64,000 bases of DNA from an uncultured Dehalococcoidia bacterium (lineage in GTDB: Bacteria; Chloroflexota; Dehalococcoidia; Bin125): positions 1,006,658-1,070,657 of the forward strand of contig CATQGW010000001.1 of NCBI GenBank assembly GCA_958295515.1, read 5' to 3'. The notes beneath the pieces are model-generated. The model made no database searches and was not told where the DNA came from. It was given only the letters and a program-made list of their open reading frames with translations. Below, one piece after another: positions 2,638 through 46,783 of this stretch (position 1 is its first letter; every line of letters starts with the position of its first letter). A program made the position numbers and the translations under genes.

Positions 2638-2705
2638 GGGTTGATCTTAGAGAGGGGGAGGGGTTGGTGGGTGGGGCGGGGGGCGCGGGGCTTGGGGGGC
2701 GGCAC

Positions 2706-2740
2706 GGCGAGATACCCGCGGCGGGGCGCGGGTATGACGG
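2706..2740. repeat. Palindromic hairpin element, type A: GGCGAGATACCCGCG-loop-CGCGGGTATGACGG.
   Basis: A 9-bp perfect stem ATACCCGCG/CGCGGGTAT with a 5-nt loop. The same element recurs more than 15 times in the window (3700-4510, 25240-25535, 44870-45560). Confidence 0.8.
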
Positions 2741-2776
2741 ATTCAGGGGCGCGGGTGTGGCGGATCCGGGGCTGGG

Positions 2777-3502: not shown

Positions 3503-3575
3503 GTTCTGTATTGGACGCTGGTGGGGTGGGTTTTGTCAAATTGGGTGGGGTGTTGGGGGTTGCATTGGGGGGTGG
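2830..3575. repeat. Left copy of a ~740-bp inverted duplication; the partner is at ~62135..62840.
   Basis: The reverse complement of 3503-3560 (...gcaacccccaacaccccacccaatttgacaaaacccaccccaccagcgtccaatacagaacATG) is near-identical to 62150-62219. The encoded proteins align over ~200 aa and diverge only at the extreme C-terminus. Confidence 0.75.
2990..3110. repeat. About 12 tandem copies of a 10-bp unit (TGTTCGATYS) inside a coding region.
   Basis: Direct reading gives tgttcgatcc tgttcggctg tgttcgattg tgttcgatcc tgttcgattg tgttcgactg and so on. The unit length is not a multiple of 3, so three units encode one 10-aa peptide repeat. Confidence 0.85.
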
Positions 3576-3589
3576 GGGGGTGGGGCGGG

Positions 3590-4560
3590 TCGTTTTCGTC
3601 ATTCCCGCGAACGCGGGAATCTCGTGGCGTGGCTTCGGAGGTTGGGCGGGGGAGATTCCCGCTTTCGCGGGAATGACGGAAAGGGGGCTTGGGAGGCGGC
3701 ACGGCGAGATACCCGCGGCAAGCGCGGGTATGACGGATCTGTGGGCGCGGGGGTGGCGGATCTATAGGCGCGGGTGTGACGGAAAGGGGGGCAGGGCTTG
3801 GGAGGTTGCGCGGGGGGATTCCCGCGTTCGCGGGAATGACGGAAAGGAGGGGGCGGGAATGGTCGCCAAAGGGATGTGGGGATGGCGGAAGTGAGGGGGC
3901 CGGTGTGCGACGGAGGTGGGGGTGGGGCTTGGAGGGTGGGACGGCGAGATACCCGCGGCGGGGCGCGGGTATGACGGATCTATGGGTGCGGGGATGACGG
4001 AAGAGGGGGTGCGGGGTGACGGAAGTGAGAGCGGGGCTTGGGAGGTTGTGCGGGGGAGATTCCCGCTTTCGCGGGAATGACGGAATTTTGGGAGCGCTGG
4101 AGACGGTGCGGGGGCTTGGTGCTGCTCACGGCGAGATACCCGCGGCAAGCGCGGGTATGACGGATCTGTGGGTGCGGGTGTGACGGATCTACGGGGGCGG
4201 GGATGGCGGAGGTGAGGGGGCAGGTGTGCGGCGGAGGTGGGGGTGGGGCTTGGAGGGTTGGGCGGGGGGGATTCCCGCTTTCGCGGGAATGACGGAATTT
4301 TGGGAGCGCTGGAGACGGCGCGGGGGCTTGGTGCTGCTCACGGCGAGATACCCGCGGCAAGCGCGGGTATGACGGATCTATGGGCGCGGGTGTGACGGAT
4401 CTACGGGGGCGGGGATGACGGAAGTGAGGGGGCGGGTGTGTGGCGGAGGTGGGGGTGGGGCTTGGAGGGTTGGACGGCGAGATACCCGCGGCGGGGCGCG
4501 GGTATGACGGATCTATGGGGGCGGGTATGACGGAAGAGGGGCGCGGGAGTGACGGAAGAG
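3590..4560. repeat. Tandem array (~210-bp period, 4-5 units) of composite hairpin elements, type A plus type B (GATTCCCGCKTTCGCGGGAATGACGG).
   Basis: The block 4060-4270 is repeated almost exactly at 4270-4480. Each unit contains one ATTCCCGC/GCGGGAAT hairpin, one ATACCCGCG/CGCGGGTAT hairpin and G-rich spacers. The ORFs the track predicts here (3776..3997, 3980..4360 and others) are periodic artefacts. Confidence 0.85.
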
Positions 4561-9817: not shown

Positions 9818-10618
9818 ATGGTTGGGGCGGCAGGAGTTTGTGTGACTGACGACGATGTGGCTCAGTTGGCTCAGCCGCTGGTGGGGCGGATTGCGCTGGT
9901 GACGGGGTCTTCGCGGGGGATTGGGCGGGAGATTGCGCTGGAGCTGGCGCGCGGGGGGGCGGATATCGCGGTCAACTATGCGCGCTCCGAGGCGGCCGCG
10001 GCCGCGGTGGCTGCGGAGATTGCGGCTTTGGGGCGGCGCAGCCTGCCGATCCGCGCCGATGTTTCGGATCCTGAGGCAGTGGCGGCGATGCTGAAGGCGG
10101 TGGGCGACGAACTGGGACGCCCGGACATTCTGGTCAACAACGCGGGGATCACGCGCGACACGCTGGCGATGCGGATGAAGGACGACGACTGGTCGGCGGT
10201 GCTGGCGACCAACCTGACGGGCGCGTTTCTGGTCACGCGGGCTTGCCTGCGGGGGATGATTCGGGGGCGCTGGGGGCGGATCATCACGATTGGCTCGGTG
10301 ATCGGGACGATGGGCAACCCTGGGCAGATCAACTACGCGGCGGCGAAGGCGGGGCTGGCGGGGATGACCCGCTCGCTGGCGAAGGAGCTCGGCTCGCGCA
10401 ACGTGACGGTGAATCTCGTTGCGCCGGGCTTCATCCGCACGGACATCACGGCGGACCTGACGCAGGAGCAGATCGACGCGGTGCTCAGCCAGGTGCCGCT
10501 GGAGCGGCTCGGCGATCCCGACGATGTGGCGCCGCTGGTGGCGTTTCTGGCGGGAGAGGGCGGGCGCTACATCACGGGGCAGGTGATCCATGTCGACGGC
10601 GGGCTGGTAATGTCTTAA
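9818..10618 (+). CDS. fabG: 3-oxoacyl-ACP reductase FabG (SDR). The true start may be the downstream GTG at ~9860.
   Basis: TGSSRGIG Rossmann motif, NAG motif and the YAAAK catalytic motif. It sits directly upstream of fabD. Confidence 0.8.
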   Translation: MVGAAGVCVTDDDVAQLAQPLVGRIALVTGSSRGIGREIALELARGGADIAVNYARSEAAAAAVAAEIAALGRRSLPIRADVSDPEAVAAMLKAVGDELGRPDILVNNAGITRDTLAMRMKDDDWSAVLATNLTGAFLVTRACLRGMIRGRWGRIITIGSVIGTMGNPGQINYAAAKAGLAGMTRSLAKELGSRNVTVNLVAPGFIRTDITADLTQEQIDAVLSQVPLERLGDPDDVAPLVAFLAGEGGRYITGQVIHVDGGLVMS

Positions 10619-15626: not shown

Positions 15627-17306
15627 ATGCGACTGTCCGGCGCTGAAATCCTGATGGAATGCCTTCGCGCGGAGGGGGTTGATGTCTTCTTCGGCTACCC
15701 CGGCGGGGTGGTGCTGCCGCTGTACCACAAGCTGGGCGCGTATCCGGATGTGAAGCACGTGCTGGTGCGGCATGAGCAGGCGGCGGCGCACGCGGCGGAC
15801 GGCTACGCGCGGGTTTCGGGGCGCACCGGCGTTTGCCTGGCGACCTCGGGACCGGGCGCGACCAACCTGGTGACCGGGATCACGACGGCGCACATGGATT
15901 CGGTGCCGATTGTGGTGATCACCGGCAACGTGGCGCGGGACCTGATTGGTCGGGACGGCTTCCAGGAGGCGGACATCACGGGGATCACGCTGCCGATCAC
16001 GAAGCACAACTATCTGCTGATGCGGGCGAGCGAGATCGCGCAGGCGGTGAAGGAGGCGTTCCACATCGCTTCGACGGGGCGCAAGGGGCCGGTGTTGGTG
16101 GATATCCCCAAGGATGTGTTCATCGAGGAGGCCGATTGGGACGGGTATCCGACCGATGTGAGCCTGCGCGGGTATCCGATTATGGATATCCCGCGCGACG
16201 ATGAGGTGGCGGTGGCGGCGGATGTGATCAACAGCGCCAAGAAGCCGATCATCATCGCGGGGCACGGGGTGGTGCAGTCGGGCGCGGCCGCGGAGCTGCG
16301 CCAGCTGGCGGAGCTGGCCGATGTGCCGGTGCTGACTACGTTGCTGGGCATCTCGGGCTTCCCCGATGATCACCCGCTGTCCTTCGGCTTTCTCGGCATG
16401 CATGGGCACTTCTACGCGAATATGGCGGCGGACCGTGCGGATGTGGTGATTGGGATTGGGATGCGCTTCGACGACCGCGCGATGGGGCGGTTCAAGGACT
16501 TCAACCCGACGGCGCGGATCGTGCATATCGACATCGACCCGGCCGAGATCGGCAAGAATTTCCACACGCATGCGCCGGTCAACGGGGATGTGCGGGAGAC
16601 GCTGCTGCGTCTGCTGCCGCGGCTCGAACCGGTCTCGCACCCGCAGTGGCGGGCCGAGATTGAGGCGATTAAGGCGGATCACCCGACCAACTACATCGAC
16701 GAGGGCACTGCGGTGACCGGTCCCTGGCTGGTGCAGGCGCTGGCGGAGGAGACGGAAGGGCAAGCGACGGTGGTGACCGGGGTTGGCCAGCACCAGATGT
16801 GGGGGGCGCAGTATTACCCGTACACGCGGCCGCGGCAGTGGGTGACCTCGGGCGGGTTGGGCACGATGGGTTATGAGGTGCCGGCGGCGATGGGGGCGCA
16901 GTTCGCGCAGCAGGAGCCGGTCTGGTCGATCTGCGGCGACGGCGGGTTCCAGATGACCTCGCAGGAGCTGCAGACGGTGCGGGAGCACGACCTGCCGGTG
17001 CGCTTTGCAATCTTCAACAACGGCTTCCTCGGTATGGTGCGGCAGTGGCAGGAGCTGTTCTACGAGAACAACTACCACTCGGTGGATATCGGCCAGCCGG
17101 ACTTCGTGAAGCTGGCGGAGGCCTACGGCATCCCCGGGCTGCGGGCGACGACGCGCGCGGAGGCGCGGCAGGTGATTCGGGAGGCGGAGGCGCTCGATGG
17201 GCCGGTCGTGATCGACTTCCAGCTGGAGCCGGAAGAGAATGTGTGGCCGATGGTGCCCGCGGGGGCGGCGCTCTCGGAGACGATCGAATCCGCTGAAGAC
17301 CTGTAG
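15627..17306 (+). CDS. ilvB: Acetolactate synthase large subunit.
   Basis: 559 aa with a ThDP-enzyme fold (GYPGG, ...GMHG..., GLGTMGY). Confidence 0.9.
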   Translation: MRLSGAEILMECLRAEGVDVFFGYPGGVVLPLYHKLGAYPDVKHVLVRHEQAAAHAADGYARVSGRTGVCLATSGPGATNLVTGITTAHMDSVPIVVITGNVARDLIGRDGFQEADITGITLPITKHNYLLMRASEIAQAVKEAFHIASTGRKGPVLVDIPKDVFIEEADWDGYPTDVSLRGYPIMDIPRDDEVAVAADVINSAKKPIIIAGHGVVQSGAAAELRQLAELADVPVLTTLLGISGFPDDHPLSFGFLGMHGHFYANMAADRADVVIGIGMRFDDRAMGRFKDFNPTARIVHIDIDPAEIGKNFHTHAPVNGDVRETLLRLLPRLEPVSHPQWRAEIEAIKADHPTNYIDEGTAVTGPWLVQALAEETEGQATVVTGVGQHQMWGAQYYPYTRPRQWVTSGGLGTMGYEVPAAMGAQFAQQEPVWSICGDGGFQMTSQELQTVREHDLPVRFAIFNNGFLGMVRQWQELFYENNYHSVDIGQPDFVKLAEAYGIPGLRATTRAEARQVIREAEALDGPVVIDFQLEPEENVWPMVPAGAALSETIESAEDL

Positions 17307-22648: not shown

Positions 22649-23895
22649 CAGATAATGCCTCTCTCGCGCAGCGCGGTGAGTTCGTCGGCGCTCAGCCCGA
22701 GTTCGCCCCAGACTTCGTCGTTGTGTTGACCGAGCCGCGGGGGTGGGCGGTCGTCCCAGCGCTGGGGCGCGCCGTCGATGCGAATTTGCAGCGGCGCGGC
22801 GGGCAGGCGCAGGCTGCGGCCGTCGTCGAGCGTGAATTCGCGCCAGAAACCGCGCGCGTCGAGCTGGCGGCTCTCGGCCAGGTCGGCGATGTTCAGGACC
22901 GGCACCAGGAGCAAGTCGTAGGCGATTGAGACGTCCAGCATTTCGCGCTTGGTTTTGCCGCGCACGTGCGCCTGCATGACCTCCTGGATGCGCGGCAGCA
23001 GATCGGGGTCGGCTGCGCCGGCCGCGAGACGGTCCGGATAGGTGACGAAGTTCTCCTCGGCCAGCTCGGCTTCGAGGACGCCCTCATCGATTAGCCAGCG
23101 GACGGCGTGGTTGACGAAGTGCCCGACGGCGGGGCCGGGCGCGAGCGCGAGGACGATCCAGCCGTCTTCGACTTCGCGGGTGCCGCGGAAGCCGACGCCG
23201 CGCGCTTTGACGCCGCCGGCGTAGCGCTCCGGCTCGACGGCGCCGAGCGAATGCGCGAGCACCTGTCCGAGCGTGGCCTGGGCGGCGGAGACCTGGGCGG
23301 AGATATCGACGTGCTGCCCGCGTCCGGTCGCGCGGCGCGCGTGCAGCGCCAGCATTGCGCCGCCCGCGGCGTCGCCGGCGGCGTGCGACCAGGACTGCGG
23401 GACGGAGATGCGCACGGGCGGTCGGTCGTCGTCGCCGCTCATCAGCAGCGGCGTGCCGGCCGCCCAGATGACCAGGTCGGTGGCCTGGTAGCGGGCTTTG
23501 GGGCCGGTTTGGCCGAAGGCGGTGATCGAGGTGTAGATCAGCTGCGGGAAGTCGTCTTTGAGCTGCTGGTAGCCGAGGCCGAGCGCGGCCATCGCGCCGG
23601 GGTCGGCGGATTCGAGCAGGATGTCGGCGCTGTCCAGTAGGCGGCGCAGCAGGGTGCGCCCGTCGGAGTGCTCGATGTCGCAGGTGATGCCGCGCTTGTT
23701 GCGGGTGTAGGCGGTCCAGAAGATGGAGCGCTCGGTTTCGGGCGCGTCGCCGCCGAAGAAGGGCGCGACGCGGCGTCCGCGCGAGCCTGCGGGCGGCTCG
23801 ACCTGGATGACGTCTGCGCCGAGGTCGGCCAGCATCTGTCCGGCGAGCACGCCGCGTTGGTCGGTGAGGTCGAGGACGCGCAGATGGTTGAGCAC
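22648..23895 (-). CDS. CoA-transferase family III (CaiB/BaiF-like).
   Basis: Starts MLNHLRVLDLTDQRGVLAGQMLADLGADVIQVEPP. Confidence 0.8.
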   Translation of the reverse strand: MLNHLRVLDLTDQRGVLAGQMLADLGADVIQVEPPAGSRGRRVAPFFGGDAPETERSIFWTAYTRNKRGITCDIEHSDGRTLLRRLLDSADILLESADPGAMAALGLGYQQLKDDFPQLIYTSITAFGQTGPKARYQATDLVIWAAGTPLLMSGDDDRPPVRISVPQSWSHAAGDAAGGAMLALHARRATGRGQHVDISAQVSAAQATLGQVLAHSLGAVEPERYAGGVKARGVGFRGTREVEDGWIVLALAPGPAVGHFVNHAVRWLIDEGVLEAELAEENFVTYPDRLAAGAADPDLLPRIQEVMQAHVRGKTKREMLDVSIAYDLLLVPVLNIADLAESRQLDARGFWREFTLDDGRSLRLPAAPLQIRIDGAPQRWDDRPPPRLGQHNDEVWGELGLSADELTALRERGII

Positions 23896-23958
23896 GGGGG
23901 CAGGCTAGCGGTGCGGCGCGCTTCGGCGTTAGCGGGTGGGCGGCGTATCGTGGCATCT

Positions 23959-25188
23959 ATGCCACTGGAAGTCGGACACGACGGCAATCGGGTGATGCTG
24001 CGGGGGGCGCTGCGCCGCTTTGATGAGCTGCGGGTGGTCAGCGCGGCGCTGTTCGACGCGATCGGGCGGCGCGGGCAGCGCGCGGTGACGCTCGATTTCT
24101 CGGCGTGCGAGGAGTTCTCGCCGGCGACGATGTTGCCGCTGCTGCCGGTCGCGGCGGGGTACCGCGAGGTCTCGGGCGCGACGTTCGAGCTGGTGGCGCC
24201 GGAAGACGAGGGGTTGAAGCGGCTGCTGATCGACTCGAATTGGGCGCACTTCATCGATCCTGAGCGGTATGCGATCAATGAGGAGGCCGGTGGGCAGGTT
24301 CCGGCGCAGCGGTTTGGGGCGGAGACGGAGGTGGGAGCGATCGTGGCGGGCGTGATGGAGCTGCTGCTGCCGAGGATGGACGTTGAGCGCGAGGCGCTCG
24401 CGGCGCTGGAATGGTCGATGTATGAGTTGATGGACAATGTGCTCTGCCACGCGGAGTCGCCGACGGGCGGGTTTGCGCAGGCGAGCGTTGATGCGCAGTC
24501 GGGGTGGGTGGAATTCGTTGTGGCGGACGGCGGGATCGGCGTCGCGGAGAGTATGCGCATTCGCGATCACGAGCAGGCGCTGGGGCGGGCGATCGCTGAG
24601 GGCGGGACGCGGGACCGAGCGGCGCACGCGGGCGATGGGCTGTTTGGGGCGTTCCGCGCGGCGACGCTGTCGGGCGGTCAGTTTGAGATCAACTCCGGGT
24701 TCGGGCTGCTCTATGGATCGCGCGAGGGTCCTGAGGAGTACCGGACCGGCAAGCGGCGGATTCGCTATAGCGGCACGGCGGTGCGCTGCGAGGTGGGCGT
24801 CGGCGATGCGGGATTGCTGGGGCGCGCGCTGGCGTTCTGCGATCGGGCGTATGAGCCGTTGGACGAGTCTGCTCAGCGAGGGAGCGGGGCGGGGGAGGTC
24901 GCTCCGTTCTCGATTCGGGAGGAGGCGGCGCAGGATGTCGGCTCGAGATCGGGCGGGCGGCGGGTGCGGGAGCTGGTGGAGGAGCGTTTGCGCCGGGATG
25001 GTGAGGCGGTACTGGACTTTGGCGGTGTTGCGGTGATTTCGAGCGGCTTCGCGGATGAGGTGTTGGGGCGGTTGTTTGCGGGGATGGGTCCGCGCGCGTT
25101 TATGAGTCGGGTTCGGGTGCGTAATGCGAATGTTGTGATCGAGGCTCTGATCGACCGCGCGATCCTACAGCGCACGCGCGCCGGGTAG
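23959..25188 (+). CDS. GHKL-ATPase (HATPase_c)-like protein with a C-terminal STAS-like domain; a putative anti-sigma-type serine kinase or regulator.
   Basis: The central segment EWSMYELMDNVLCHA...GWVEFVVADGGIGV fits the HATPase_c N- and G1-boxes. The C-terminus DFGGVAVISSGFADEVLGRLF is STAS-like. Track ORF 23668 starts upstream in a junk prefix; I chose the ATG at 23959. Confidence 0.4.
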   Translation: MPLEVGHDGNRVMLRGALRRFDELRVVSAALFDAIGRRGQRAVTLDFSACEEFSPATMLPLLPVAAGYREVSGATFELVAPEDEGLKRLLIDSNWAHFIDPERYAINEEAGGQVPAQRFGAETEVGAIVAGVMELLLPRMDVEREALAALEWSMYELMDNVLCHAESPTGGFAQASVDAQSGWVEFVVADGGIGVAESMRIRDHEQALGRAIAEGGTRDRAAHAGDGLFGAFRAATLSGGQFEINSGFGLLYGSREGPEEYRTGKRRIRYSGTAVRCEVGVGDAGLLGRALAFCDRAYEPLDESAQRGSGAGEVAPFSIREEAAQDVGSRSGGRRVRELVEERLRRDGEAVLDFGGVAVISSGFADEVLGRLFAGMGPRAFMSRVRVRNANVVIEALIDRAILQRTRAG

Positions 25189-25199
25189 CGGCGGGATCG

Positions 25200-25545
25200 T
25201 TTCAGCGCTGAGTTTGTCACGGCTGTTGGTGCTGGTCACGGCGAGATACCCGCGGCAAGCGCGGGTATGACGGTGGTGGGGGCGCGGGTATGACGGTGGG
25301 TTCGACACGGATGTTGGCGCTGGTCAGGGCGAGATACCCGCGGCAAGCGCGGGTATGACGGTGGTTGGGGCACGGGTGTGGCGGTGGGTTCGACACGGAT
25401 GTTGGCGCTGGTCAGGGCGAGATACCCGCGGCAAGCGCGGGTATGACGGTGGTAGGGGTGCGGGCGTGGTGGTGGGTTCGACACGGATGTTGGTGCTGGT
25501 CAGGGCGAGATACCCGCGGCAAGCGCGGGTATGACGGTGGTGGGG
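25200..25545. repeat. Four tandem copies of a ~90-bp unit containing the type A hairpin.
   Basis: The unit ttcgacacggatgttggcgctggtcagggcgagatacccgcggcaagcgcgggtatgacggtgg... repeats at 25240, 25330, 25420 and 25505. Confidence 0.85.
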
Positions 25546-26210
25546 GCGCGAGTGCGGAGCGGAGCGCTGCTTCGACGTCGGATTCTTCGAGATCGAAGTC
25601 GGAGGCGATGAAGGCGATCGATTCGTCGGCGCGCCAGCGCTTGACGATGGTTTCGAGCAGGAGGGCCGCGGTTGAGGAAGGTGACCGCGCCGCCGGCGAA
25701 GCGCGGATCGATCATCAGCGGCGCGCTGTCGCCGGCTGGGAAGAGGCGCCGCGCCCATGTGCCCGCTGCGGCATTCTGAGCGCAATCGTCGTACTCGATC
25801 GCGCGTGTCGCGAGCTCGGCGAACTTGGGCAGGGGCGGCAGTGATGTCGGCCATTCGTCATCGTGGCCAGGGCTGCTCGCGTTGGAGTCGCCGCAGCCCA
25901 GCGTGTTCAATCTGAGTTCGGCGAAGGGATGCTCAACTCCCCAGCGCTCGCGGGCGAACTCGCGGCTTTGGCGAAGCTGCTCGACGCTGAGTCCGCAGGC
26001 GCGGAGGCGGCGCGCGACGATCAGCTCGACGAGTTCGAGGAACGAGAGGTGGAACGTTGCCTGGTCCGGGCGGCGATCGGCGAATAGCGGCGGCGCGGCG
26101 CGGTGGCCGCGAAACCAGCGGACGACGGTGGCGGTCGTCGTCTCTGCGAGGCGGGCGGCTTCGGCTGTCGTGTACAGCGATGTCGTGCGGGCGTCGTTGG
26201 GCGATCTCAT
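25500..26210 (-). pseudogene. MerR/excisionase-type HTH fused to DUF433, interrupted by a -1 frameshift near 25665.
   Basis: Frame 1 gives MRSPNDARTTSLYTTAEAARLAETTTATVVRWF...IDPRFAGGAVTFLNRG and then nonsense. A second frame continues LLETIVKRWRADESIAFIASDFDLEESDVEAALRS, which is the DUF433 C-terminal signature. Both frames terminate inside the 90-bp repeat array. Confidence 0.5.
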
Positions 26211-26243: not shown

Positions 26244-27071
26244 TCAGCTCGATGCGGAGCGTTGGGGGCGGCCGGGGCCGGGGGGGCCGGCGAAGGCTTG
26301 GGCTCGTTGGAGGAATTCTTCGGCGGCGGGGCCTTGCCACTGGAGGGCGGTGTCGCGGTAGTGGATGCGCTGGGTGGCGACGCGGCAGAAGTCGCCGGCG
26401 GCGCCGTGGATGCGGTTGGGTGCGTCTTCGGGGCCGCGCGCCCAGGCTGCGCCGGAGGGGAGGGTGAGTTCGAGGCGCAGCGGTTCGGAGTTGGGCTCGA
26501 GGCCGCGGGTTTGGTAGGCGAAGGCGCGGGTGATGTAGCCGAGGTGGGCGATGTGCTCGAGGCGGTCGCTGTCGACGGGGGCGATCTGCGCGCCGTCGAG
26601 CGCGTCGAGGCCGTGGCTCCAGCATTCCATGAGGCGGGCGGTGGCGAAGGAGCGGGCGCTCATGGGCGGGCCGGCCCAGGGCAGGCGGTGTTTGGCGTCG
26701 AGCGGGCGGAGGGCGGCTTCGAGTCGGCCGCGGGCGGCGCGCCACCAGTCGACGAGCTGGAGGCGGTTCATATGGCGCGCTTGGTCCTGGGCGTGGGAGC
26801 GCAGGCCGTCGGCGGAGCGCCCGCCGCTGTCGGGGTAGCGCGGCGCGCCGGAGGCGACGATGGCGGCGTGGTCGTCGACTTCGGCGAGGTGGGCGATCAC
26901 GTCGCGGACGAGCCAGCCGTCGCAGGGGGTGGGTCGCTGCCAGAGGGCGTCGTCGGTCTGGGCGAGGGCGTCGTCGAGGTAGCGCTGCTCGGCGGTGAGG
27001 TCGTCGAGGAGGGTTTGCCAGGGGTCGGGCATCTCTGCGCGTCTCTTTCCTGCTGTGTTGGCGCGGCTCAC
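26244..27071 (-). CDS. DinB/MDMPI_N-family protein (mycothiol-type maleylpyruvate-isomerase N-terminal domain).
   Basis: 275 aa with the motif PTPCDGWLVRDVIAHL. Confidence 0.6.
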   Translation of the reverse strand: MSRANTAGKRRAEMPDPWQTLLDDLTAEQRYLDDALAQTDDALWQRPTPCDGWLVRDVIAHLAEVDDHAAIVASGAPRYPDSGGRSADGLRSHAQDQARHMNRLQLVDWWRAARGRLEAALRPLDAKHRLPWAGPPMSARSFATARLMECWSHGLDALDGAQIAPVDSDRLEHIAHLGYITRAFAYQTRGLEPNSEPLRLELTLPSGAAWARGPEDAPNRIHGAAGDFCRVATQRIHYRDTALQWQGPAAEEFLQRAQAFAGPPGPGRPQRSASS

Positions 27072-27190
27072 GGCATTGGGCGGTCAGGTCGCTTCGCCCG
27101 GCGCAGCTGCCGCTGTTGCTTCGGCCCCGATCGGGCCTTGGCCAGCGACGGGCCGCTGTGTAGGGTACGCGGCCCGCGAAGGAGAGTTTC

Positions 27191-27998
27191 GTGAGTTCAT
27201 CCGTTCGTTTTACCCCCCCCCCCACAGGGACGTGCCGCCGCCAACAGCGCACGGTCTCCGCTGCGGTATCCGGGCGGGAAGTCGCGGGCGGTCAAGCACA
27301 TTCGCCCGCACATCCCCGCGAATGTCGGGCAGCTCTGTGCGCCGTTCCTGGGCGGCGCGAGCGTTGAGCTTGCGTGCGCCGCTGAGGGGATCGTCGTTCA
27401 CGGCTCCGACGCATTCGAGCCGCTGGTCAACTTCTGGCGCTTCGCGCTGACCGATGCCGGTCGCCTCGTTGAGCGAGTGCGGGATCATCACCCGTTGTTG
27501 AAGAGCGGGTTCTACAACCTACAGCGGAGTTACCATAACTTGACTGACCCGCTCGAACGGGCGGCGGTCTTCTTCGCGCTCAATCGATCTTCGTTTTCCG
27601 GGACGACGCTGTCAGGCGGTATGTCGCCGGGGCATCCGAGGTTCACGCCCGCGGCGATCACGCGCCTGGAGCAGTTTGCGAACGACGGTTTGTGCGTCGA
27701 GCACCTCGACTATCGAGAGGCGCTGACTCGCCATCCGAACGAATTTCTGTACCTGGATCCTCCTTACGCGAACGGGCAGCGCTTGTATGGCGACAGAGGC
27801 GACATGCACGGGAGCGTTGATCACCGCGAGCTGGCGGCGATGTTGTACCGACGCAGCGGATGGGTGCTGAGCTACAACGACTGCGCCGAGATACGCGAGC
27901 TGTATCGCGGCTACCGCATCATCGAACCGGGCTGGGCGTACGGCATGTCGGGGGAAGGCCGCCTGCGCTCGCGGGAATTGCTGATCATCGATGCCTAG
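27191..27998 (+). pseudogene. Dam-class (alpha, D12) N6-adenine DNA methyltransferase, out of frame at an 11-C homopolymer. It is a phase-OFF or frameshifted allele.
   Basis: GAAGGAGAG lies 6 nt before the GTG at 27191. The GTG frame runs through the C tract and stops at ~27360. A different frame encodes SPLRYPGGKSRAVKHIRPHIPANVGQLCAPFLGGASVEL (Dam motifs X and I) through to FLYLDPPYA (motif IV) and the stop at 27998. That frame has no start codon after its in-frame TGA at 27192 until the internal GTG at 27477. Removing one C joins the GTG frame to the Dam frame and gives a ~269-aa product. Confidence 0.7.
27213..27223. repeat. Homopolymeric C11 tract. On the minus strand it reads G11-TAAAAC.
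   Basis: Direct count across ...cgttttaCCCCCCCCCCCacaggg... Confidence 0.9.
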
Positions 27999-28854
27999 TC
28001 AAGCAGAGAGCGGCAAGGCGTGGGAATATGGACTTGCCCGCCGTCTGGGGCGGATGAACGGAGTGTCCATCCTCTCGAGCAATGCGCCGCTGGCAGCGCT
28101 CAAGGCGTATCATCAGTACGGCGAGCAGGCTCGAGCTGAGATCGAACGCGCTGCGGTTGCTGCCGCGAACTTCCTCGAAGCCCACGACGATCGTTTCGGG
28201 GAACTGGCGAACCTTGAGCTCCAGAGTGATCAGCGCGGTAGAGACGGCGATGTGCGCGACATTCTGGCGGCGACGCAAAGCGGCGACGTGATTGGCATTT
28301 CGGCGAAGCATCGACATCGAGCGCTCAAGCACTCGCGGCTGTCGGACAGCATCGACTTCGGCCTCGAGTGGTACGGCCGGCCTTGCTCGGCAACCTATTG
28401 GGCGCGCGTCAAGCCGGTGTTCGGCAGTCTTCGGCGTGTCAACGTCGGATACTGGCGTGAGTTGCCCGACAAGCATGACGGATATTACCGGCCGGTGTTG
28501 ACAGCGTTCATGGACGAGGTGCGGACCAATGCCGATGCGGCGCGGCTGCTGCGCTACGTCGTCGGGCGCTACGATTTCTACAAGGTGATCAAGTCGAACG
28601 GCGACATCGAGATTCAGTCGTTCAACCTCAGCGGCAGCCTGCAGTGGGGAGCCAAGTTGCCGATGCCGACTCGGATCGTTGAATTTCGACGGGAAACGGA
28701 TCGAGTCGGGACCGCTGAGCTGACGCTTGATCAAGGATGGCAGTTGTCGTTTCGCCTGCACAACGCCAATGCTGCGATCGAGCCGTCGCTCAAGTTCGAT
28801 ATCCAGTTGGTCGGGAGTCCGGAGGAGATGGGCAACTACACCACCGCCTATTGA
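27991..28854 (+). CDS. Putative type II restriction endonuclease partner of the Dam-class MTase, family unknown.
   Basis: 287-aa ORF whose ATG lies inside the MTase stop (ATGCCTAG). Coding-like composition and ~60% GC. A possible variant nuclease motif is GDVRD...GDVIGISAKH. The role is inferred from position only. Confidence 0.4.
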   Translation: MPSQAESGKAWEYGLARRLGRMNGVSILSSNAPLAALKAYHQYGEQARAEIERAAVAAANFLEAHDDRFGELANLELQSDQRGRDGDVRDILAATQSGDVIGISAKHRHRALKHSRLSDSIDFGLEWYGRPCSATYWARVKPVFGSLRRVNVGYWRELPDKHDGYYRPVLTAFMDEVRTNADAARLLRYVVGRYDFYKVIKSNGDIEIQSFNLSGSLQWGAKLPMPTRIVEFRRETDRVGTAELTLDQGWQLSFRLHNANAAIEPSLKFDIQLVGSPEEMGNYTTAY

Positions 28855-29033
28855 TGGTTGTCACCGGTTGGCGCGTACGCCGCGTTGAAGACTGCGGACG
28901 GCTTCGACGATTGCGCCGTGTGCTCGTACTCGCGCATGGCTGCTCCTCCCGCGTTGCGAGGGGAACGTATCGGGCCGGGGCGTGGGCGGCGAGCGTGGGC
29001 GTGGGCCCGCGGTGGGCCCTGTGGACCGGGGTT

Positions 29034-30119
29034 TTAGATGGGGGCGAGTTCGTCCATGAGCCAGGTGAGGCGCTCTTCGCTGAGTTTGGGGGCGGGCTTG
29101 GCGGCTTTTTCGGCGCTGCCGGGGTAGGCGAAGTTGCCCTGGCGGTCGCGGTCGGAGCTGCGCACGTACTGGCCGAGCCCGATCCGCCCGGCGTAGTCGA
29201 GGTGCTCGCGGGCGTACTTGGGCAGGTCGTCCCAGGTGACGGCGTGCGCCATTTCGGCGGCGACCTCGAAGTTGACCGCGTCGATCATCTTGTCCCACTC
29301 GCCGCGCAGCGAGAGTTCGTGCAGCTGCATGCCGAGCGAGTCGAAGCCGTGCGCTTCGAAGATGCGGTGGTAGGTGCGGGTGGAGCCGTAGAAGGAGATC
29401 GGCTGGCGCAGGCCCTCGATGGCTTGCTCGACTTCGGCTTCGGTCTCGCCGAAGGCCATGAAGCCGCCGACGGAGACTTCGATGTCTTCGACGTTGCGGC
29501 CGGCGCGGTCGGCGCCCTTTTTGACGTTGGGCAGGACGGATTCGAGCATCATTTTGTGGGTCATGAAGCCGTGCGGGCGGAGTCCGTCGGCGCAGGCGCC
29601 GGCGACCTGCGCCATCAGCGGGCCGACGTTGGCGAGGGAGATTTTGGGCGGCGCGTACTCGATCGGGCCGGGGTCGAACATGGGGGTCATGAGCGTGTAG
29701 GTGTAGTTGTCGGAGATGTATTCGGGGCGCTGGCCGGTCTGCCAGGAGTGCCAGACGGCGCGCATCATGCCGATGTAGTCCTCCATGCGGCGGGCGGGCG
29801 GCGTCCAGGTGCCGCCGAAGCGGCGGACGTTGTGGCCTTTGACCTGGCTGCCGAGTCCGATGTTGATGCGGCCGCCGGAGAGCTGCTGGAGGTCCCACAT
29901 GGCCTGGGCGAGGATCATCGGCGAGCGGGGGAAGGCGATGGTGACCGAGGAGCAGATTTCGACGCGCTCGGAGTGTTCGGCGGCGAGCGCCAGGGCGAGG
30001 GTGGAGTCGTGCTTGGTTTCGGGGGTGACGACGGCGTCGAAGCCGCGTTGTTCGGCGAGGCGCACCTGTTCGGGGATGCCGCCGAGCCAGCCGCCGCCGA
30101 AGCCGGTTTCGATTTTCAT
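29034..30119 (-). CDS. LLM-class F420/flavin-dependent oxidoreductase (luciferase-like).
   Basis: Starts MKIETGFGGGWLGGIPEQVRLAEQRGFDAVVTPE. I chose the second ATG because an AAAGGA RBS precedes it. Confidence 0.7.
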   Translation of the reverse strand: MKIETGFGGGWLGGIPEQVRLAEQRGFDAVVTPETKHDSTLALALAAEHSERVEICSSVTIAFPRSPMILAQAMWDLQQLSGGRINIGLGSQVKGHNVRRFGGTWTPPARRMEDYIGMMRAVWHSWQTGQRPEYISDNYTYTLMTPMFDPGPIEYAPPKISLANVGPLMAQVAGACADGLRPHGFMTHKMMLESVLPNVKKGADRAGRNVEDIEVSVGGFMAFGETEAEVEQAIEGLRQPISFYGSTRTYHRIFEAHGFDSLGMQLHELSLRGEWDKMIDAVNFEVAAEMAHAVTWDDLPKYAREHLDYAGRIGLGQYVRSSDRDRQGNFAYPGSAEKAAKPAPKLSEERLTWLMDELAPI

Positions 30120-31787: not shown

Positions 31788-32369
31788 TTGGCAGGGCGCG
31801 GCGGTGCGGGTATAACCCTGGGCGTGGATACGAAGAGCGGGCGACGCCGCGCAGACGGCAACGCGGACGAGATCGCGGCGCTGCTCGGCGACGAGCGGGC
31901 GGTGTCGCGCGAGGCGGGCGCGCGTCGGGCGGCGCGCGACGGCTCGGCGCGGCACCTGCGAACGCTCAACGAGCTGGCGCTCGGCGATCCGTCGCAGCGG
32001 GTGCGGCGCGAGGCGGCGGCCTCGATTGGCCGCATCGCGGCCGAGCTGCCGGAGGCGTTTGCGATGCTGGCGGGGCTGGCCGAGCACACGGATCCGGGGG
32101 TGGTGCTGCAGGCCGCGCGTGGGCTGATGCGCAGCGGTCGGGGCTGCACACAGCGGGCGATCGCCGAACCGCTGCTGGATCGCCTCGCGGCGCATCCCAA
32201 CGAGGTCGTGCGCGACTTCGTGGCGGTCGAGCGGGGGCGCGCAGCCCGCGGTCATAACGCGCGTGCGGGGGGGGGGGGGGGTAAAAGCGCACCGCGACGC
32301 GCCGGCCTGGCTGGAGAATCGACTGGTGCAGGGCGACGCGCTCGAGCTGCTGCGGCGCTTGCCCGATGA
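31788..32369 (+). CDS. HEAT / PBS-lyase repeat protein. The C-terminal tail beyond the G tract is probably not native.
   Basis: TTG start. Repeats present: DPSQRVRREAAASIGRI, DPGVVLQAARGL and HPNEVVRDFVA. The reading frame passes through the G15 tract, encoding GGGGG. Confidence 0.45.
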   Translation: MAGRGGAGITLGVDTKSGRRRADGNADEIAALLGDERAVSREAGARRAARDGSARHLRTLNELALGDPSQRVRREAAASIGRIAAELPEAFAMLAGLAEHTDPGVVLQAARGLMRSGRGCTQRAIAEPLLDRLAAHPNEVVRDFVAVERGRAARGHNARAGGGGGKSAPRRAGLAGESTGAGRRARAAAALAR

Positions 32370-33132
32370 CAGCATTCACCTGACGTTCACGTCGCCGCCC
32401 TACTACAACGCGCGTGATTACTCGGTCTACGAGTCCTACGAGGCTTACCTCGACTTTCTGGAATCGGTCTTCGCCGAGCTGCACCGCGTCACCAAAGAGG
32501 GGCGCTTTCTGGTGGTCAACACCTCGCCGGTGATCGTGCCGCGCGCGGGGCGGCAGCATGAGAGTCACCGCTTCGCGATTCCGTTCGACCTGCACCCGCG
32601 GCTGACGGCGCAGGGCTGGCGGTTCATCGACGACATCATCTGGCGCAAGCCGGACGGGGCGGCGAAGCCGCGCAATTCGGGCTTTGCGTCGCACCGCCAG
32701 CCGCTGACCTGGAAGGCGAATGCGGTGACGGAGTATGTGATGGTCTACCGCAAGCGGTCGGCGCGGCTGATCGACTGGAATCTGCGGCAGTACCCGGCGG
32801 ATGTGCGCGAGGCGAGCCGCGCGCCGGACGACTATGAAACGAGCAATGTGTGGGAGATTGATCCCGCCGTTGATCGGGTGCATAGCGCGGTGTTTCCTGC
32901 GGCGCTGTGCGAGCGGGTGATCGCGTATTACTCGATGGTGGGGGACCTGATTTTCGATCCGTTCGCGGGCAGCGGAACGGTGGGGGTGGCGGCGCTGAAG
33001 CTGGAGCGGCGGGCGCTGCTGGCGGAGATCGATGATCGGTATGTGCAGCGGATTCAGAACCGCGTCGGTATGCAAATGCGCGCCTGCACGATCGAACAGT
33101 TATTGGAGGGGCGCGATGCGTCTGAGTCCTGA
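32263..33132 (+). CDS. Beta-class DNA methyltransferase (motif IV SPPY before motif I), probably N4-cytosine specific.
   Basis: The motif order is NRLVQGDALELLRRLPDDSIHLTFTSPPYYN and then FDPFAGSGTVGVAA. The annotated start is the GTG 4 nt before the G tract. An alternative start is the GTG at ~32326, which has a GGAGA RBS. Confidence 0.75.
   Translation: MRGGGGVKAHRDAPAWLENRLVQGDALELLRRLPDDSIHLTFTSPPYYNARDYSVYESYEAYLDFLESVFAELHRVTKEGRFLVVNTSPVIVPRAGRQHESHRFAIPFDLHPRLTAQGWRFIDDIIWRKPDGAAKPRNSGFASHRQPLTWKANAVTEYVMVYRKRSARLIDWNLRQYPADVREASRAPDDYETSNVWEIDPAVDRVHSAVFPAALCERVIAYYSMVGDLIFDPFAGSGTVGVAALKLERRALLAEIDDRYVQRIQNRVGMQMRACTIEQLLEGRDASES
32267..32281. repeat. Homopolymeric G tract of ~15 nt, followed by TAAAAG.
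   Basis: Read directly. The tract length of 15 is the one consistent with both track ORF frames (HEAT ...ARAGGGGGK and MTase MRGGGGVK). Confidence 0.85.
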
Positions 33133-34030
33133 CGGCCTGCGGCACGCGATTCGCTGCCTGATCCGCGACGGCCAGAGCCATCGGCAGGCGATTTTCGAGG
33201 AGATCAACCGCGAATTCGTGCGCCATGCGGTTGAGTTTTTCACCGAGGTCGCGCACGCCAAGCTGAAGGGCGAAGACCTGGCGGCCTCCGAGGACTGGTA
33301 CGAACGGCAGCTGCTGCGCAGCGGCCGATACAGCAAGGAAGAGATCGCTGTTCACGCCGGCATTCCGATGAAAACGATCGAGAACATTCACGAGTCGACC
33401 AGCTCCAATGTGGTGCTCGACGCCAGCTTGCAGAATCATCAGGCGCTGCGGCGGACGATCGAAGAGGTTCTCGCCGCCGGGGAGGGTCCCTCGATCACGT
33501 TGACGATCAAGCTGCGCGGCGTTGGGGTGGATCTCAGCCTCGATGAGAGTCTGATCGTAATCAATTCATTGGCGGTCAAGCGCGAGCGGATTCGCGGCGG
33601 GATGTGGTCCACAGCGGGCAAGCAGGTTGAGGTGCCGCTGATGGCGACGCTCTGTCTGCTGCACGGTGTGGATGATCGCTTCTGGCGGATCGCCAAGCCT
33701 GACGAGTATCCGCATCAGATTGATTTCGTGTTGCAGAGCCACGGAAAGCAGTATCTCTGCGAAGTGAAGCTGATGGGCAAGGGGAACCCGGAAAGCGCCA
33801 AGGCTGCGCACGCGCACAATGCCAATCTGTTGGTCGCCGACCGCCTCTCGGAGCAGGCGAAGCAATCGTTGAGCAAGAACAATGTCGAGTGGGTAGAGCT
33901 GGCGGCAGCGTCGGGCTACCGGCGGTTCGGCGTTGTGCTGGACCGGTTCAACATTGAGCGAGGGGAAGCGGCTGATCTCGAGGGGTTGGATGAGATCATT
34001 GAGCGCGCCATTGAGCGCACGGCTCGCTGA
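33116..34030 (+). CDS. Putative type II restriction endonuclease of the PD-(D/E)XK class.
   Basis: Its ATG overlaps the MTase 3' end by 17 nt. The motif ...HQIDFVLQSHGKQYLCEVKLMG fits D-x13-E-x-K. Local GC is ~60%. Confidence 0.5.
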   Translation: MRLSPDGLRHAIRCLIRDGQSHRQAIFEEINREFVRHAVEFFTEVAHAKLKGEDLAASEDWYERQLLRSGRYSKEEIAVHAGIPMKTIENIHESTSSNVVLDASLQNHQALRRTIEEVLAAGEGPSITLTIKLRGVGVDLSLDESLIVINSLAVKRERIRGGMWSTAGKQVEVPLMATLCLLHGVDDRFWRIAKPDEYPHQIDFVLQSHGKQYLCEVKLMGKGNPESAKAAHAHNANLLVADRLSEQAKQSLSKNNVEWVELAAASGYRRFGVVLDRFNIERGEAADLEGLDEIIERAIERTAR

Positions 34031-34154
34031 GGCGGTGGTGGGATGTTCCGTCGTGCGGCTGTTGGGAGGGAGGCTTTGGCGGGGCTGTGGAGGTTGAATC
34101 CACAACATCCGCGCTTGTTTGCTTGTAGGGTATGCGGCGCACTTGGGAGAGGGA

Positions 34155-36206
34155 ATGCCGATGCCTATCGCAGCCGTGTTGAGCGCCAGGACCGTGGTCG
34201 GCGGCATTGCGCTCGCCGCGTTGCTGCTGTTGGTTGGCGTTGTTCTCGGTATCGCAGGCGGTTGGCAACAGGCGGAAGCTCAGGAGGAAGCCCGCGCGGT
34301 CGCGATCAGCGTCGGCGAATCGCACGCCTGCGCGCTGCTCGACTCGGGCGCGATCGAGTGCTGGGGCGACAACCGGTACGGTCAAACGGATGCGCCGAAC
34401 GGTCGCTTCAGCGCGGTCAGCGCGGGAGATCGGCATAGCTGCGGGCTGCGGGAGGGGGGCGAAGTCGAATGCTGGGGATGGAACGGGTTCGGCCAAACGG
34501 ATACACCGAGCGGCCGCTTTAGCGCGGTGAGCGCGGGTTTGTTCCACAGCTGTGGGCTGTGGAAGACGGGCGAAGTCGAGTGCTGGGGCGACAACCGGTA
34601 CGGTCAAACGGCTGCGCCGAGCGGTCGTTTCAGCGCCGTCAGCACGGGCAGCGCGCACAGCTGCGGGCTGCGGAAGACGGGTGCCGTCGAGTGCTGGGGA
34701 AGTAATGAGTACGGCCAAGCAGGTGCGCCGAGCGGTCGCTTCAGCGCGGTCAGCGCAGGCTGGGGGCACAGCTGCGGACTGCGGGAGACGGGTGCCGTCA
34801 AATGCTGGGGATACAACAGGTCTGGCGAAGCGGCTGCGCCGAGCGGTCGCTTCAGCGCGGTCAGCGCGGGCAGCTCGCGCAGTTGCGGGCTGCGGGAGAC
34901 GGGCGCGGTCGAGTGCTGGGGATGGAACGAGGACGACCAAACGGCTGCGTCGGGTGGTCGCTTCAGCGCGATCAGCGCAGGCTGGTCGCACATTTGCGGG
35001 CTGCGGGAGACGGGCGCGGTCGAGTGCTGGGAAGCCAACAATGCCGGCCAAGCGGCTGCGCCGAGCGGTCGCTTCGGCGCGGTCAGAGCGGGAAATTTGC
35101 ATAGCTGCGGGCTGCGGGAGACGGGCGCGGTGGAGTGCTGGGGAGCCAACAGTGCCGGCCAAACGGGTACACCGAGCGGCCGCTTCAGCGCGGTGAGTGC
35201 GGGCGGGTGGCACAGTTGCGGGCTGCGGGAGACGGGCGCGGTTGAGTGCTGGGGAGCCAACGCCTTCGGCCAAACGGCTGCGCCGAGCGGTCGTTTCAGC
35301 GCCGTCAGCACGGGCAGCGTGCACAGTTGCGGGCTGCGGGAGACGAGCGTGGTCGAGTGCTGGGGGTACAACGGGGGCGGCCGGACGGATGCGCCGAGCG
35401 GTCGCTTTAGCGCGGTCAGCGCAGGCGCTGCGCACAGCTGTGGACTGCGGGAGACGGGCGAGGTCGAGTGCTGGGGACGCAACTTGGACGGCCAAGCGGA
35501 TGCGCCGGGCGGTCGCTTCGGCGCGGTCAGCGCGGGCTGGCGTCACAGTTGCGGGCTGCAGGAGACCGGCGCGGTTGAGTGCTGGGGATATAACAGGTCC
35601 GGCCAAACGGATGCGCCGAGGGGTCGTTTCAGCGCGGTCAGCGCGGGCGAGTATCACAGCTGTGGGCTGCGGGAGACGGGCACGATCGAGTGCTGGGGGT
35701 ACACATTCGACGGACAGACGCAGCCGCCCACAGGGAAGCATCTTCAAATCAGCGCTGGTGCGAATCACGCCTGCGCGCTGAGCGAAGGCGGAACGGTCTC
35801 TTGCTGGACGATCTTCAACGGCGCTGCCGATGTGCCCGCCTGGTTGCGCGAGCCCAGCGTTGAGGCGGTGGGCGATTCTGCCAGCGGTCGGATTGTGGCG
35901 CGCAGGCTGGCCGATGGGCGCACTGAGTTTGCCTGGCTGCCTGCCGGGAGTGAGGAGCGCATCTTGCCGCGCTCGCGCTACTTCCCCACGGGCGCCGCCG
36001 TGGACCGCTGGCTGCGCTCCAGCCCGATCGAGGTTGACGGCGTTGAGATTGGGCGGATCAACGCGCGGCTGCTGGCGAATGGGCGGATTGAGTTGGCGTT
36101 TACGCCGACGGGCGGCGAGCGGATTCTGCCGCCGTCGCGCTACTTCCCGGTGAATGCCGGCGTGGACCGCTGGTTGCGGAGCACGGAGATCGATCCGGGC
36201 GGCTGA
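34155..36206 (+). CDS. Membrane-anchored RCC1-like repeat protein (~21 repeats of ~26 aa).
   Basis: N-terminal TM helix, then the consensus repeat GxVECWGxNxxGQTxAPSGRFSAVSAGxxHSCGLRET. The DNA is 78-bp tandem repeats. The many overlapping antisense ORFs in the track are artefacts. Confidence 0.7.
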   Translation: MPMPIAAVLSARTVVGGIALAALLLLVGVVLGIAGGWQQAEAQEEARAVAISVGESHACALLDSGAIECWGDNRYGQTDAPNGRFSAVSAGDRHSCGLREGGEVECWGWNGFGQTDTPSGRFSAVSAGLFHSCGLWKTGEVECWGDNRYGQTAAPSGRFSAVSTGSAHSCGLRKTGAVECWGSNEYGQAGAPSGRFSAVSAGWGHSCGLRETGAVKCWGYNRSGEAAAPSGRFSAVSAGSSRSCGLRETGAVECWGWNEDDQTAASGGRFSAISAGWSHICGLRETGAVECWEANNAGQAAAPSGRFGAVRAGNLHSCGLRETGAVECWGANSAGQTGTPSGRFSAVSAGGWHSCGLRETGAVECWGANAFGQTAAPSGRFSAVSTGSVHSCGLRETSVVECWGYNGGGRTDAPSGRFSAVSAGAAHSCGLRETGEVECWGRNLDGQADAPGGRFGAVSAGWRHSCGLQETGAVECWGYNRSGQTDAPRGRFSAVSAGEYHSCGLRETGTIECWGYTFDGQTQPPTGKHLQISAGANHACALSEGGTVSCWTIFNGAADVPAWLREPSVEAVGDSASGRIVARRLADGRTEFAWLPAGSEERILPRSRYFPTGAAVDRWLRSSPIEVDGVEIGRINARLLANGRIELAFTPTGGERILPPSRYFPVNAGVDRWLRSTEIDPGG

Positions 36207-44739: not shown

Positions 44740-45645
44740 CCCCCGTGATTCCCGCTCGGGGGCGGGAATGACGGAAAAGAGGAGTCGGAGGTTGAACGGC
44801 GAGATACCCGCGCTCCTCCGCCGTCATTGCCGCGCCCCGCCGCGGCAATCTCGCCGAGTTCAACACGGATGTTGGTGCAGGTCACGGCGAGATACCCGCG
44901 GCAAGCGCGGGTATGACGGAGTGTGTGTGGCGGGTGTGTGACGGAGCGGGCGGGTGTGTGACGGAATTGGTGGGCGGGAATGACGGAAAAGGGGAGTGGG
45001 AGGTTGAACGGGGAGATACCCGCGCTCCTCCTCCGTCATTGCCGCGTTCCGCCGCGGCAATCTCGCTGCGTTCAACACGGATGTTGGTGCAGGTCGCGGC
45101 GAGATACCCGCGGCAAGCGCGGGTATGACGGAGTGTGTGGCGGGTGTGTGACGGAGCGGGCGGGTGTGTGACGGAATTGGTGGGCGGGAATGACGGGAAG
45201 GGGGGGTCGGAGGTTGAACGGCGAGATACCCGCGCTCCTCCTCCGTCATTGCCGCGCCCCGCCGCGGCAATCTCGCTGCGTTCAACACGGATGTTGGTGC
45301 AGGTCACGGCGAGATACCCGCGGCAAGCGCGGGTATGACGGAGTGTGTGGCGGGTGTGTGACGGAGCGGGCGAGTGTGTGACGGAATTGGCGGGCGGGAA
45401 TGACGGAAAAGGGGGGTCGGAGGTTGAACGGCGAGATACCCGCGCTCCTCCTCCGTCATTGCCGCGTTCCGCCACGGCAATCTCGCTGCGTTCAACACGG
45501 ATGTTGGTGCAGGTCACGGCGAGATACCCGCGGCAAGCGCGGGTATGACGGAGTGTGTGGCGGGTGTGTGACGGAGCGGTCGGGTGTGTGACGGAATTGG
45601 TGGGCGGGAATGACGGAACTTGAGGTGGGCGGGGATGACGGAGGT
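44740..45645. repeat. Tandem array (4 copies of ~210 bp) of nested palindromes: type B, type C (ATTGCCGCG-N6-CGCGGCAAT) and type A.
   Basis: The unit ggttgaacggcgagatacccgcgctcctcc...gtcattgccgcg...cgcggcaatctcgc...gttcaacacggatgttggtgcaggtcacggcgagatacccgcggcaagcgcgggtatgacgg... repeats every 210 bp. The track ORFs here are offset by exactly 210. Confidence 0.9.
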
Positions 45646-46668: not shown

Positions 46669-46686
46669 TGGGGGGGGGGGGGGGGG
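46669..46686. repeat. Homopolymeric G18 tract followed by TAAAAG, ~100 bp upstream of the yhhQ-like gene.
   Basis: Direct count across gaattGGGGGGGGGGGGGGGGGGtaaaagttgg. Confidence 0.9.
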
Positions 46687-46783
46687 TAAAAGTTGGATTG
46701 ACGGTTTGCCACAGGTCGCTATCGTGGGCGCCGTAGGTGGGGACGGAAGCGGAACTCGCGCGCTGGGGAGTGGGAGCGAGACG

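Follow-up and report, generated by a model that had tools for sequence, protein, structure and literature searches.

Methyltransferase (MTase) and Type IIG genes of Helicobacter pylori are switched by homopolymers, as in JHP1272, where a poly-C tract is read as PPPP (PMC3936762). The NlaIV system of Neisseria gonorrhoeae is a Type II restriction-modification (R-M) system with separate MTase (M) and restriction endonuclease (R) genes and 5'-end homopolymers. Its switch is a poly-T tract in the endonuclease gene, and its MTase is on in almost all isolates (bioRxiv 10.64898/2026.01.10.698759). M.CbeI of Caldicellulosiruptor bescii, the protein in the structure 7M6B (PMC8616854), was annotated as a D12 adenine methylase; it was found experimentally to be an alpha-class N4-cytosine methylase of GGCC with a DPPY motif, and its partner is the HaeIII-like nuclease CbeI (PMC3425538). 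A long coding G run was also described in pilus genes of Bifidobacterium breve, and the accessible part of PMC9187656 attributes its heterogeneity to replication slippage on the basis of error-controlled deep sequencing. In this study, a DNA stretch of 64,000 nucleotides (nt) from an uncultured Dehalococcoidia bacterium (contig CATQGW010000001.1), called the window here, was analysed. It carries a two-gene M-then-R operon with a run of eleven C near the start of its MTase gene. We consider it reasonably likely that the C run acts as a hypermutable contingency tract, through which slipped-strand phase variation acts on the whole Type II R-M operon.

The operon and its 5' region in the window contain the following features.

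27138 to 27143, plus strand: -35-like hexamer TTGGCC of a putative promoter, invariant in seven of seven aligned 5' regions, 17 nt 5' of the -10-like box
27161 to 27166, plus strand: -10-like hexamer TAGGGT (TATGGT in orthologs), with the T, A, G, G and T columns invariant in the seven sequences
27178 to 27184, plus strand: Shine-Dalgarno (SD) sequence GAAGGAG, 6 nt 5' of the GTG at 27191, kept in the window and in the relatives L031, L035, L001, L004 and L003
27191 to 27367, plus strand: GTG start and 58-codon out-of-frame open reading frame (ORF) of the 11-C state, with the stop TGA at 27365-27367
27213 to 27223, plus strand: C11 homopolymer, followed by A-C; compared with sister strains, an interrupted C13 (C11-A-C)
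27225 to 27998, plus strand: MTase body, an alpha-class D12-family amino-MTase (M.CbeI-like) in a frame offset from the GTG (PF02086, 2.3e-25)
27991 to 28854, plus strand: HaeIII-family restriction endonuclease of 287 codons (PF09556 RE_HaeIII, 3.2e-69), whose ATG overlaps the MTase stop (GATGCCTAG)

A preliminary description of this DNA had proposed that an SD-preceded GTG at 27191 opens a frame that passes through the C11 tract and terminates, and that the offset frame downstream encodes an MTase devoid of a start codon. Both proposals held. The first frame gives a product of 58 amino acids (aa). The MTase frame stays open between 27195 and the TAG at 27996-27998, is closed upstream by the TGA at 27192-27194 that overlaps the GTG, and has its earliest ATG, GTG or TTG only at the GTG at 27477. 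The tract is separated from the GTG at 27191 by 19 nt and falls in codons 8-11. Translation of altered tract lengths showed that the GTG frame reads through to 27998 at 10 C or 13 C, giving 268 and 269 aa respectively; the same description had expected about 269 aa after removal of one C. At 11 C the product has 58 aa and at 12 C it has 86 aa. A change of a single C can decide whether the frame is full-length or truncated, and one length in three (10, 13, 16) joins the GTG to the MTase body.

The window has a guanine-plus-cytosine (GC) content of 67.6%, slightly below the earlier figure of about 70%. The three long tracts of the window have 11, 15 and 17 nt, and no other C/G run is longer than 7 nt. 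Dinucleotide shuffles gave, on average, 0.42 matches to C11/G11 per window. A lone C11 is only mildly unusual for the window. The tract is judged to be non-random because a C run occupies the same codon position in every close ortholog, not because of the C11 length alone. The whole window was also searched with Rfam at the gathering threshold and with ARAGORN, and with zero matches there was no riboswitch or RNA gene at any tract.

The SD-proximal GTG is taken as the likely real start of the MTase. AGGAGA lies at 27180-27185 within the SD region, and the pre-tract peptide is conserved in the GTG frame across orthologs (VSSSVRFT, VASLVNFT, VTSLVDFT and VRSATRFIA). Gene callers chose upstream starts, namely an ATG in L001, a GTG in L003 and a far-upstream start in L031. 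The upstream ATG of L001 falls inside the -10-like box. The upstream starts of the 'full-length' proteins P0001, P0002 and P0260 were rejected, since they lie in or before the -10-like box, read through the SD sequence and have no SD of their own. A strict sigma-70 consensus scan found no promoter in 26900-29100, and the proposed operon promoter is drawn from conservation across the seven aligned 5' regions.

The MTase translation shows RYPGGKSR, APFLGGASV (previously misread as EPFLGGASV) and DPPY, so that FxGxG and (D/N)PPY stand in alpha order. The 10-C translation scored 90.2 bits against PF02086, where the cut-off is 22, and covered profile positions 1-253 of 253. The MTase thus resembles E. 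coli-type Dam in its Pfam family and in the motif order of FxGxG followed by DPPY, and at this level its earlier assignment to the Dam class was borne out. At the NCBIfam level the assignment failed. The scores were 78 against a cut-off of 114.85 for TIGR00571 and 31.8 against 441 for PRK10904, and Dam proper (GATC N6-adenine) was rejected on these two scores. The best match with a solved structure, and the nearest characterised relative, was M.CbeI in PDB 7M6B (E 2e-34, 122 bits, residues 21-256), whereas the Dam and DpnM structures matched far more weakly (E 8e-6 to 1e-4). Unlike the orphan Dam, the MTase of the window is paired with a nuclease. It stands first in an M-R operon and is not the lone MTase that had been implied; with an intact nuclease in the operon, what a switch controls therefore differs from the earlier reading.

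The overlap between the MTase stop and the nuclease start was invariant in five lineages, and the pairing with a HaeIII-family nuclease was found in all syntenic orthologs. A PDB sequence search with the endonuclease gave no match. The unit is probably a CbeI-like M-then-R Type II operon with GGCC / N4-methylcytosine (m4C) specificity, which is predicted from homology and from the partner nuclease. There are 428 GGCC sites in the window; therefore, the nuclease without its methylase would be lethal. The observed/expected ratio of GGCC in the window is 0.69 and is uninformative on specificity because CCGG, GTAC and ACGT give similar values.

The relatives of the locus share the gene order of a divergent MDMPI-like gene, the MTase, the HaeIII-family nuclease and a luciferase-like gene. 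Close relatives were obtained from metagenome contigs (L001-L005, 82-89% aa identity), and strain-level genomes from one HiFi sample (L031 and L034-L036) have 96-97% nt identity to the window. A genome-collection scan found MTase homologs only in metagenome-assembled genomes (MAGs) of marine-sponge symbionts of many phyla; none of the relatives in it exceeded 71% identity, and a C run was seen in no bacterial homolog. The only syntenic relative in the collection was the Dehalococcoidia MAG OZ241375.1 (L006), whose MTase has 71% aa identity. Its synteny with the window spans several genes, and an intergenic repeat family is also common to both. The host is a sponge-associated Dehalococcoidia.

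The C run was present at the same site in eight distinct sequences, with lengths of 11-15.

Window: C11, then A-C
L035: C13
L031, L034 and L036: C14
L004, identical to L005: C13
L001, identical to L002: C14
L003: C15

The window, L035, L031, L034 and L036 belong to one species (11, 13, 14, 14 and 14), and the others are sister lineages (13, 14 and 15). Including alleles deduced from proteins, the sister-lineage lengths extend over 12-16 and some are in frame. The in-frame proteins P0256 (MRSATRFIAPPPPSLG, 270 aa) and P0251 (PPPPP, 271 aa) differ by one proline; they begin with MRSATRFIAPPPP(P)SLG, which is the exact GTG frame of the L003 type at 13 and 16 C. P0254, P0247 and P0252 are also in frame, and P0002 and P0255 represent tracts of 15 and 12 C. 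Truncated ORF calls of 152-216 aa account for 14 of the 24 cluster members. To restore the frame, a shift of +1 is needed in the window, L035 and L004, and of -1 in L031, L001 and L003. A programmed ribosomal frameshift was rejected on this difference in direction among sequences.

The L006 ortholog is without a C run. Three copies of CGCGGGA stand instead at 9954-9974, where they separate the MTase body from an ATG (9933) that has an SD ahead of it. With three copies the gene is out of frame; one copy or four would restore the frame. Separately, the homolog P0005 has an N-terminal RIADRGS repeated three times, a pattern that a 7-nt DNA repeat would encode, as judged from the protein. More distant MTase homologs have ordinary ATG starts and no repeat. 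In sponge-associated MAGs of Nitrosopumilaceae, G9-G11 runs are intergenic and lie upstream of the same MTase family.

L023, 9799 to 9807: G run about 180 nt upstream of the MTase ATG
L026, 9795 to 9805: G run about 180 nt upstream of the MTase ATG
L028, 9787 to 9797: G run about 180 nt upstream of the MTase ATG
L027, 8068 to 8078: G run about 330 nt upstream of the MTase ATG

The L025 locus of the same MTase family has no upstream G run.

The MTase body (244 codons) and the nuclease (287 codons) are open in all five lineages compared. Between lineages, the ratio of non-synonymous to synonymous substitution rates (dN/dS) was 0.08-0.15 for the MTase, at synonymous divergence (dS) of 0.18-2.3, and 0.08-0.14 for the nuclease. 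Within the species, the pooled ratio of non-synonymous to synonymous polymorphism (pN/pS) was 0.05 for the MTase and 0.21 for the nuclease in five assemblies, all of which are out of frame. Both genes are under purifying selection, and from the intact bodies and the low ratios the MTase gene is therefore in use. These values bear directly on the idea that a one-way frameshift recently killed the MTase in this species and that the operon is decaying. Neither R-M operon of the window (the second is described below) is in frame in any of the five strains, and the window tract has gained a C-to-A interruption, as such an idea would have it. On the other hand, no further lesion was found in the 244 and 287 codons of any lineage, dN/dS is around 0.1, and the cell would not tolerate an intact GGCC nuclease that lacks its methylase. 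The strains are also out of frame differently (+1 and +2), and therefore no single ancestral lesion exists. The form of this idea raised earlier, a fixed frameshift without a tract in orthologs, is contradicted by close orthologs that keep the tract at varying lengths. We regard a recent pseudogene as extremely unlikely. The slipped-strand switch architecture proposed earlier is backed by the same-site tract, its varying lengths and the purifying selection on the gene.

Purifying selection despite an out-of-frame consensus in every strain would also be explained if expression were leaky, with RNA polymerase or the ribosome slipping on the C run so that every length gives some MTase and the tract tunes its level. 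Transcriptional slippage is common beyond roughly the 9-bp length of the RNA-DNA hybrid, and runs of 11-15 exceed that length. The direction of the correction, however, varies between +1 and -1, so no programmed recoding site is in place. Besides, the G tract of Bifidobacterium breve was credited to replication and not to transcriptional slippage in the available text of PMC9187656. Leaky expression is distinctly unlikely in our judgement.

Between the window and L031, none of 732 nt of the MTase body (27267-27998) differ, yet the tracts are C11-A-C and C14. Either the tract evolves much more rapidly than the remainder of the MTase gene, or it is miscounted. The DNA around the identical body is about 96% identical. 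The identity of the MTase suggests that strains recently exchanged the R-M locus or, alternatively, that constraint is unusually strong.

A second M-R operon of the same design is located at 31788-34030, 5 kb from the first, and a further long run lies between divergent genes.

31788 to 32369, plus strand: HEAT-repeat N-terminal part of the second MTase gene (PF13646, 8.5e-16), which passes the G tract in the wrong frame
32267 to 32281, plus strand: G15 homopolymer, located in the linker between the HEAT and MTase domains; lengths of G14 or G17 fuse the two
32263 to 33132, plus strand: N4/N6 beta-class MTase domain with SPPY (PF01555, 2.3e-39)
33116 to 34030, plus strand: CfrBI-family restriction endonuclease (PF09516, 9.9e-18), with a 17-nt overlap with the MTase end; the called gene of L031 agrees
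46670 to 46686, plus strand: intergenic G17 homopolymer that separates divergent genes; a promoter-like site, TTGACG-16-TATCGT, follows 11 nt downstream

Intact homologs of the second MTase are single proteins of 400-470 aa with HEAT and PF01555, and several have a poly-Gly linker. The second tract is G15 in the window, L036 and L033, G16 in L031, L034 and L035, and G14 in L032. The G14 allele of L032 is fused in frame (P0122, 437 aa), and further fused HEAT-MTase alleles are P0262, P0277, P0288 and P0295. The G17 tract is flanked by a luciferase-like gene on the minus strand and by the Vut_1 gene (queuosine-precursor transporter). Its length was 17, 15 and 16 in three strains, and the tract was absent where the Vut_1 protein is 86% identical. 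In that lineage (L040), a 478-aa N6_N4 MTase is encoded at 2201-3637, directly downstream of the Vut_1 gene. The L040 contig begins with a C9 run (1-9), which suggests an assembly break at another homopolymer.

At least two MTase tracts and one intergenic tract are thus present within 20 kb. Read on the G strand, each of the three runs has the flank G(n)-TAAAA (27207-27223 on the minus strand, 32267-32287 and 46670-46692). The three loci are unrelated, and the orientation of the motif to the gene differs among them; its chance occurrence is about 1e-4 per site at the base composition of the window. The G17 tract together with TAAAAGTTGGA resembles an insertion relative to the sister lineage that lacks the tract. 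One may imagine a common mechanism that installs, maintains or reads the tracts, in other words a dedicated hypermutation-cassette system at defence and uptake genes of sponge symbionts. We hold such a system to be very unlikely.

The lengths at these further tracts also bear on a different explanation of the C run, namely that the gene is in frame and always on, that the assembled length is off by 1-2, and that the run is a poly-Pro stretch in a tolerant N-terminal tail. The contigs of the related genomes have names such as s21.ptg000022c and belong to a hifiasm-style HiFi metagenome. In the HiFi strains, both MTase tracts fall 1-2 under the in-frame value, the non-coding G17 tract likewise varies among 15, 16 and 17, and the strong within-species purifying selection fits a working gene. 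Against such a consensus error, the window needs 10 or 13 C and has 11, so that a uniform under-call is no clean fit. Two assemblers gave the same length per sample (C14 for L001 and L002, C13 for L004 and L005), and Illumina assemblies of other samples show both in-frame and out-of-frame alleles. A pure run of CCC codons maintained over a dS of about 1 is unexpected for a plain poly-Pro motif. In addition, what breaks the frame in the L006 ortholog is a repeat of 7 nt, a kind that is rarely miscounted in sequencing. On balance, a consensus error at an always-on gene seems to us rather unlikely.

We therefore return to the contingency tract. The sequence features of contingency genes are present, with a homopolymer of at least about 8 nt in an ORF, a frame change, length variation and purifying selection. 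Slipped-strand mispairing at replication would alter the run length, in a manner that may be reversible within a clone. At one length in three, the SD-proximal GTG would be joined to the MTase body and the MTase would be translated. At the other lengths, translation would meet an early stop (27367 in the window), about 620 nt before the nuclease ATG. This ATG has no nearby SD, the preceding sequence being cgcgggaattgctgatcatcgATG. Coupling of the nuclease is proposed from the overlap of this ATG with the MTase stop and from the lack of a good SD before it. The nuclease would fall silent together with the MTase through lost translational coupling, possibly with polarity, and the system would switch as a unit. 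In a phasevarion, an MTase that switches alters the expression of a group of genes; the MTase gene is usually Type III mod or Type I, and an active nuclease is often missing. The intact nuclease under selection points to a switching of defence rather than of regulation, although the tract may also have a regulatory role.

Several points weigh against a contingency switch. Every tract length given here is an assembly consensus, and the frame states rest on assembled homopolymers. The earlier statement that the MTase is switched off by C11 was correct for the 11-C frame, which is broken; the state of the gene itself depends on the assembled homopolymer length. HiFi and Illumina are both prone to miscalling G/C runs of 11-17 nt. 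In the five HiFi strains, the first MTase tract has 13-14 where 15 is in frame and the second has 15-16 where 17 is in frame; systematic under-calling of an always-on gene would look identical. Relative to the GTG, none of the eight distinct DNA sequences is in frame, for which the chance is about 0.04 under random phase. Turning a Type II system off should be costly, as residual nuclease outlasts methylation. Finally, the coupling of the nuclease, the specificity and the reversibility are parts of the proposal that we infer from sequence.

The proposed switch can be compared with the described systems. As in Helicobacter pylori, an intragenic G/C run is read as a short Pro or Gly run and its length decides whether the enzyme is made. 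The window MTase also resembles H. pylori alleles that reference genomes show as 'inactive' and that a one-base repair activates (PMC3936762). The H. pylori type differs in that it occurs in low-GC host-adapted pathogens and is mostly a single-polypeptide R-M-S enzyme or a Type III mod gene. The window, in contrast, has a two-gene M-then-R operon in a GC-rich uncultured bacterium. NlaIV is alike in being Type II with separate genes and 5'-end homopolymers. However, its layout is safe, whereas the tract of the window is in the MTase gene upstream of the overlapping nuclease gene. With the tract in the MTase and not in the nuclease, safety must therefore come from co-silencing. CbeI / M.CbeI, and likewise DmtB of Anabaena, share the alpha-class D12 MTase, the DPPY motif and the adjoining HaeIII-like endonuclease; unlike the window, no tract is reported for CbeI in the available text of PMC3425538. 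The long coding G run of Bifidobacterium breve is similar and is found in a fairly GC-rich, non-pathogenic, host-associated bacterium, as far as the accessible part of PMC9187656 goes. That tract controls pili, not DNA modification or restriction.

Other features were observed in the window. Upstream of the R-M operon, at 23668-26210, there is a HATPase/DUF4325 (STAS-like) gene, which is followed in relatives by a DUF433 and PIN_10 pair. Together they form a small toxin-antitoxin or defence-like cluster adjoining the R-M operon. Intergenic tandem arrays with periods of 88 and about 210 nt are present at 3961-4489, 25218-25554 and 44760-45618, and further array sites are at 3722-3783, 4361-4560 and 52624-52688. 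The arrays share the palindromic core ATACCCGCG...CGCGGGTAT-GACGG and form a repeat family like the repetitive extragenic palindromes and bacterial interspersed mosaic elements (REP/BIME-like). The same palindromic element is found in the Dehalococcoidia MAG L006 around 16206-16332. Two large genes, at 34119-36206 and 60214-61909, are built from RCC1-type repeats of 111 nt, about twelve in number (PF13540, 13 stretches). Their DNA identity to one another is 81-84%, and they encode eukaryote-like repeat proteins.

This kind of switch is already known, and what is unfamiliar is the organism, an uncultured high-GC sponge symbiont. A literature search of incomplete coverage found no report of repeat-driven phase variation in sponge symbionts or in Chloroflexota. 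The only paper with both 'sponge symbiont' and 'phase variation' was a survey of Pseudomonas from a freshwater sponge. Sponge symbionts are rich in R-M genes. In most relatives, gene calling gave the MTase as an ORF that is truncated or oddly extended. Since 14 of the 24 cluster members are called as fragments, the R-M inventories of such MAGs are undercounted, and errors of long reads in homopolymer length directly affect functional calls. The position of the tract in the methylase gene of an M-then-R operon raises the question of how the cell is protected from its own nuclease during switching. If several Type II operons flip by slippage, the cells of one symbiont population would differ, as in a mosaic, in their states of defence and methylation. 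Such mosaic defence, if true, would bear on phage pressure and gene flow inside the sponge.

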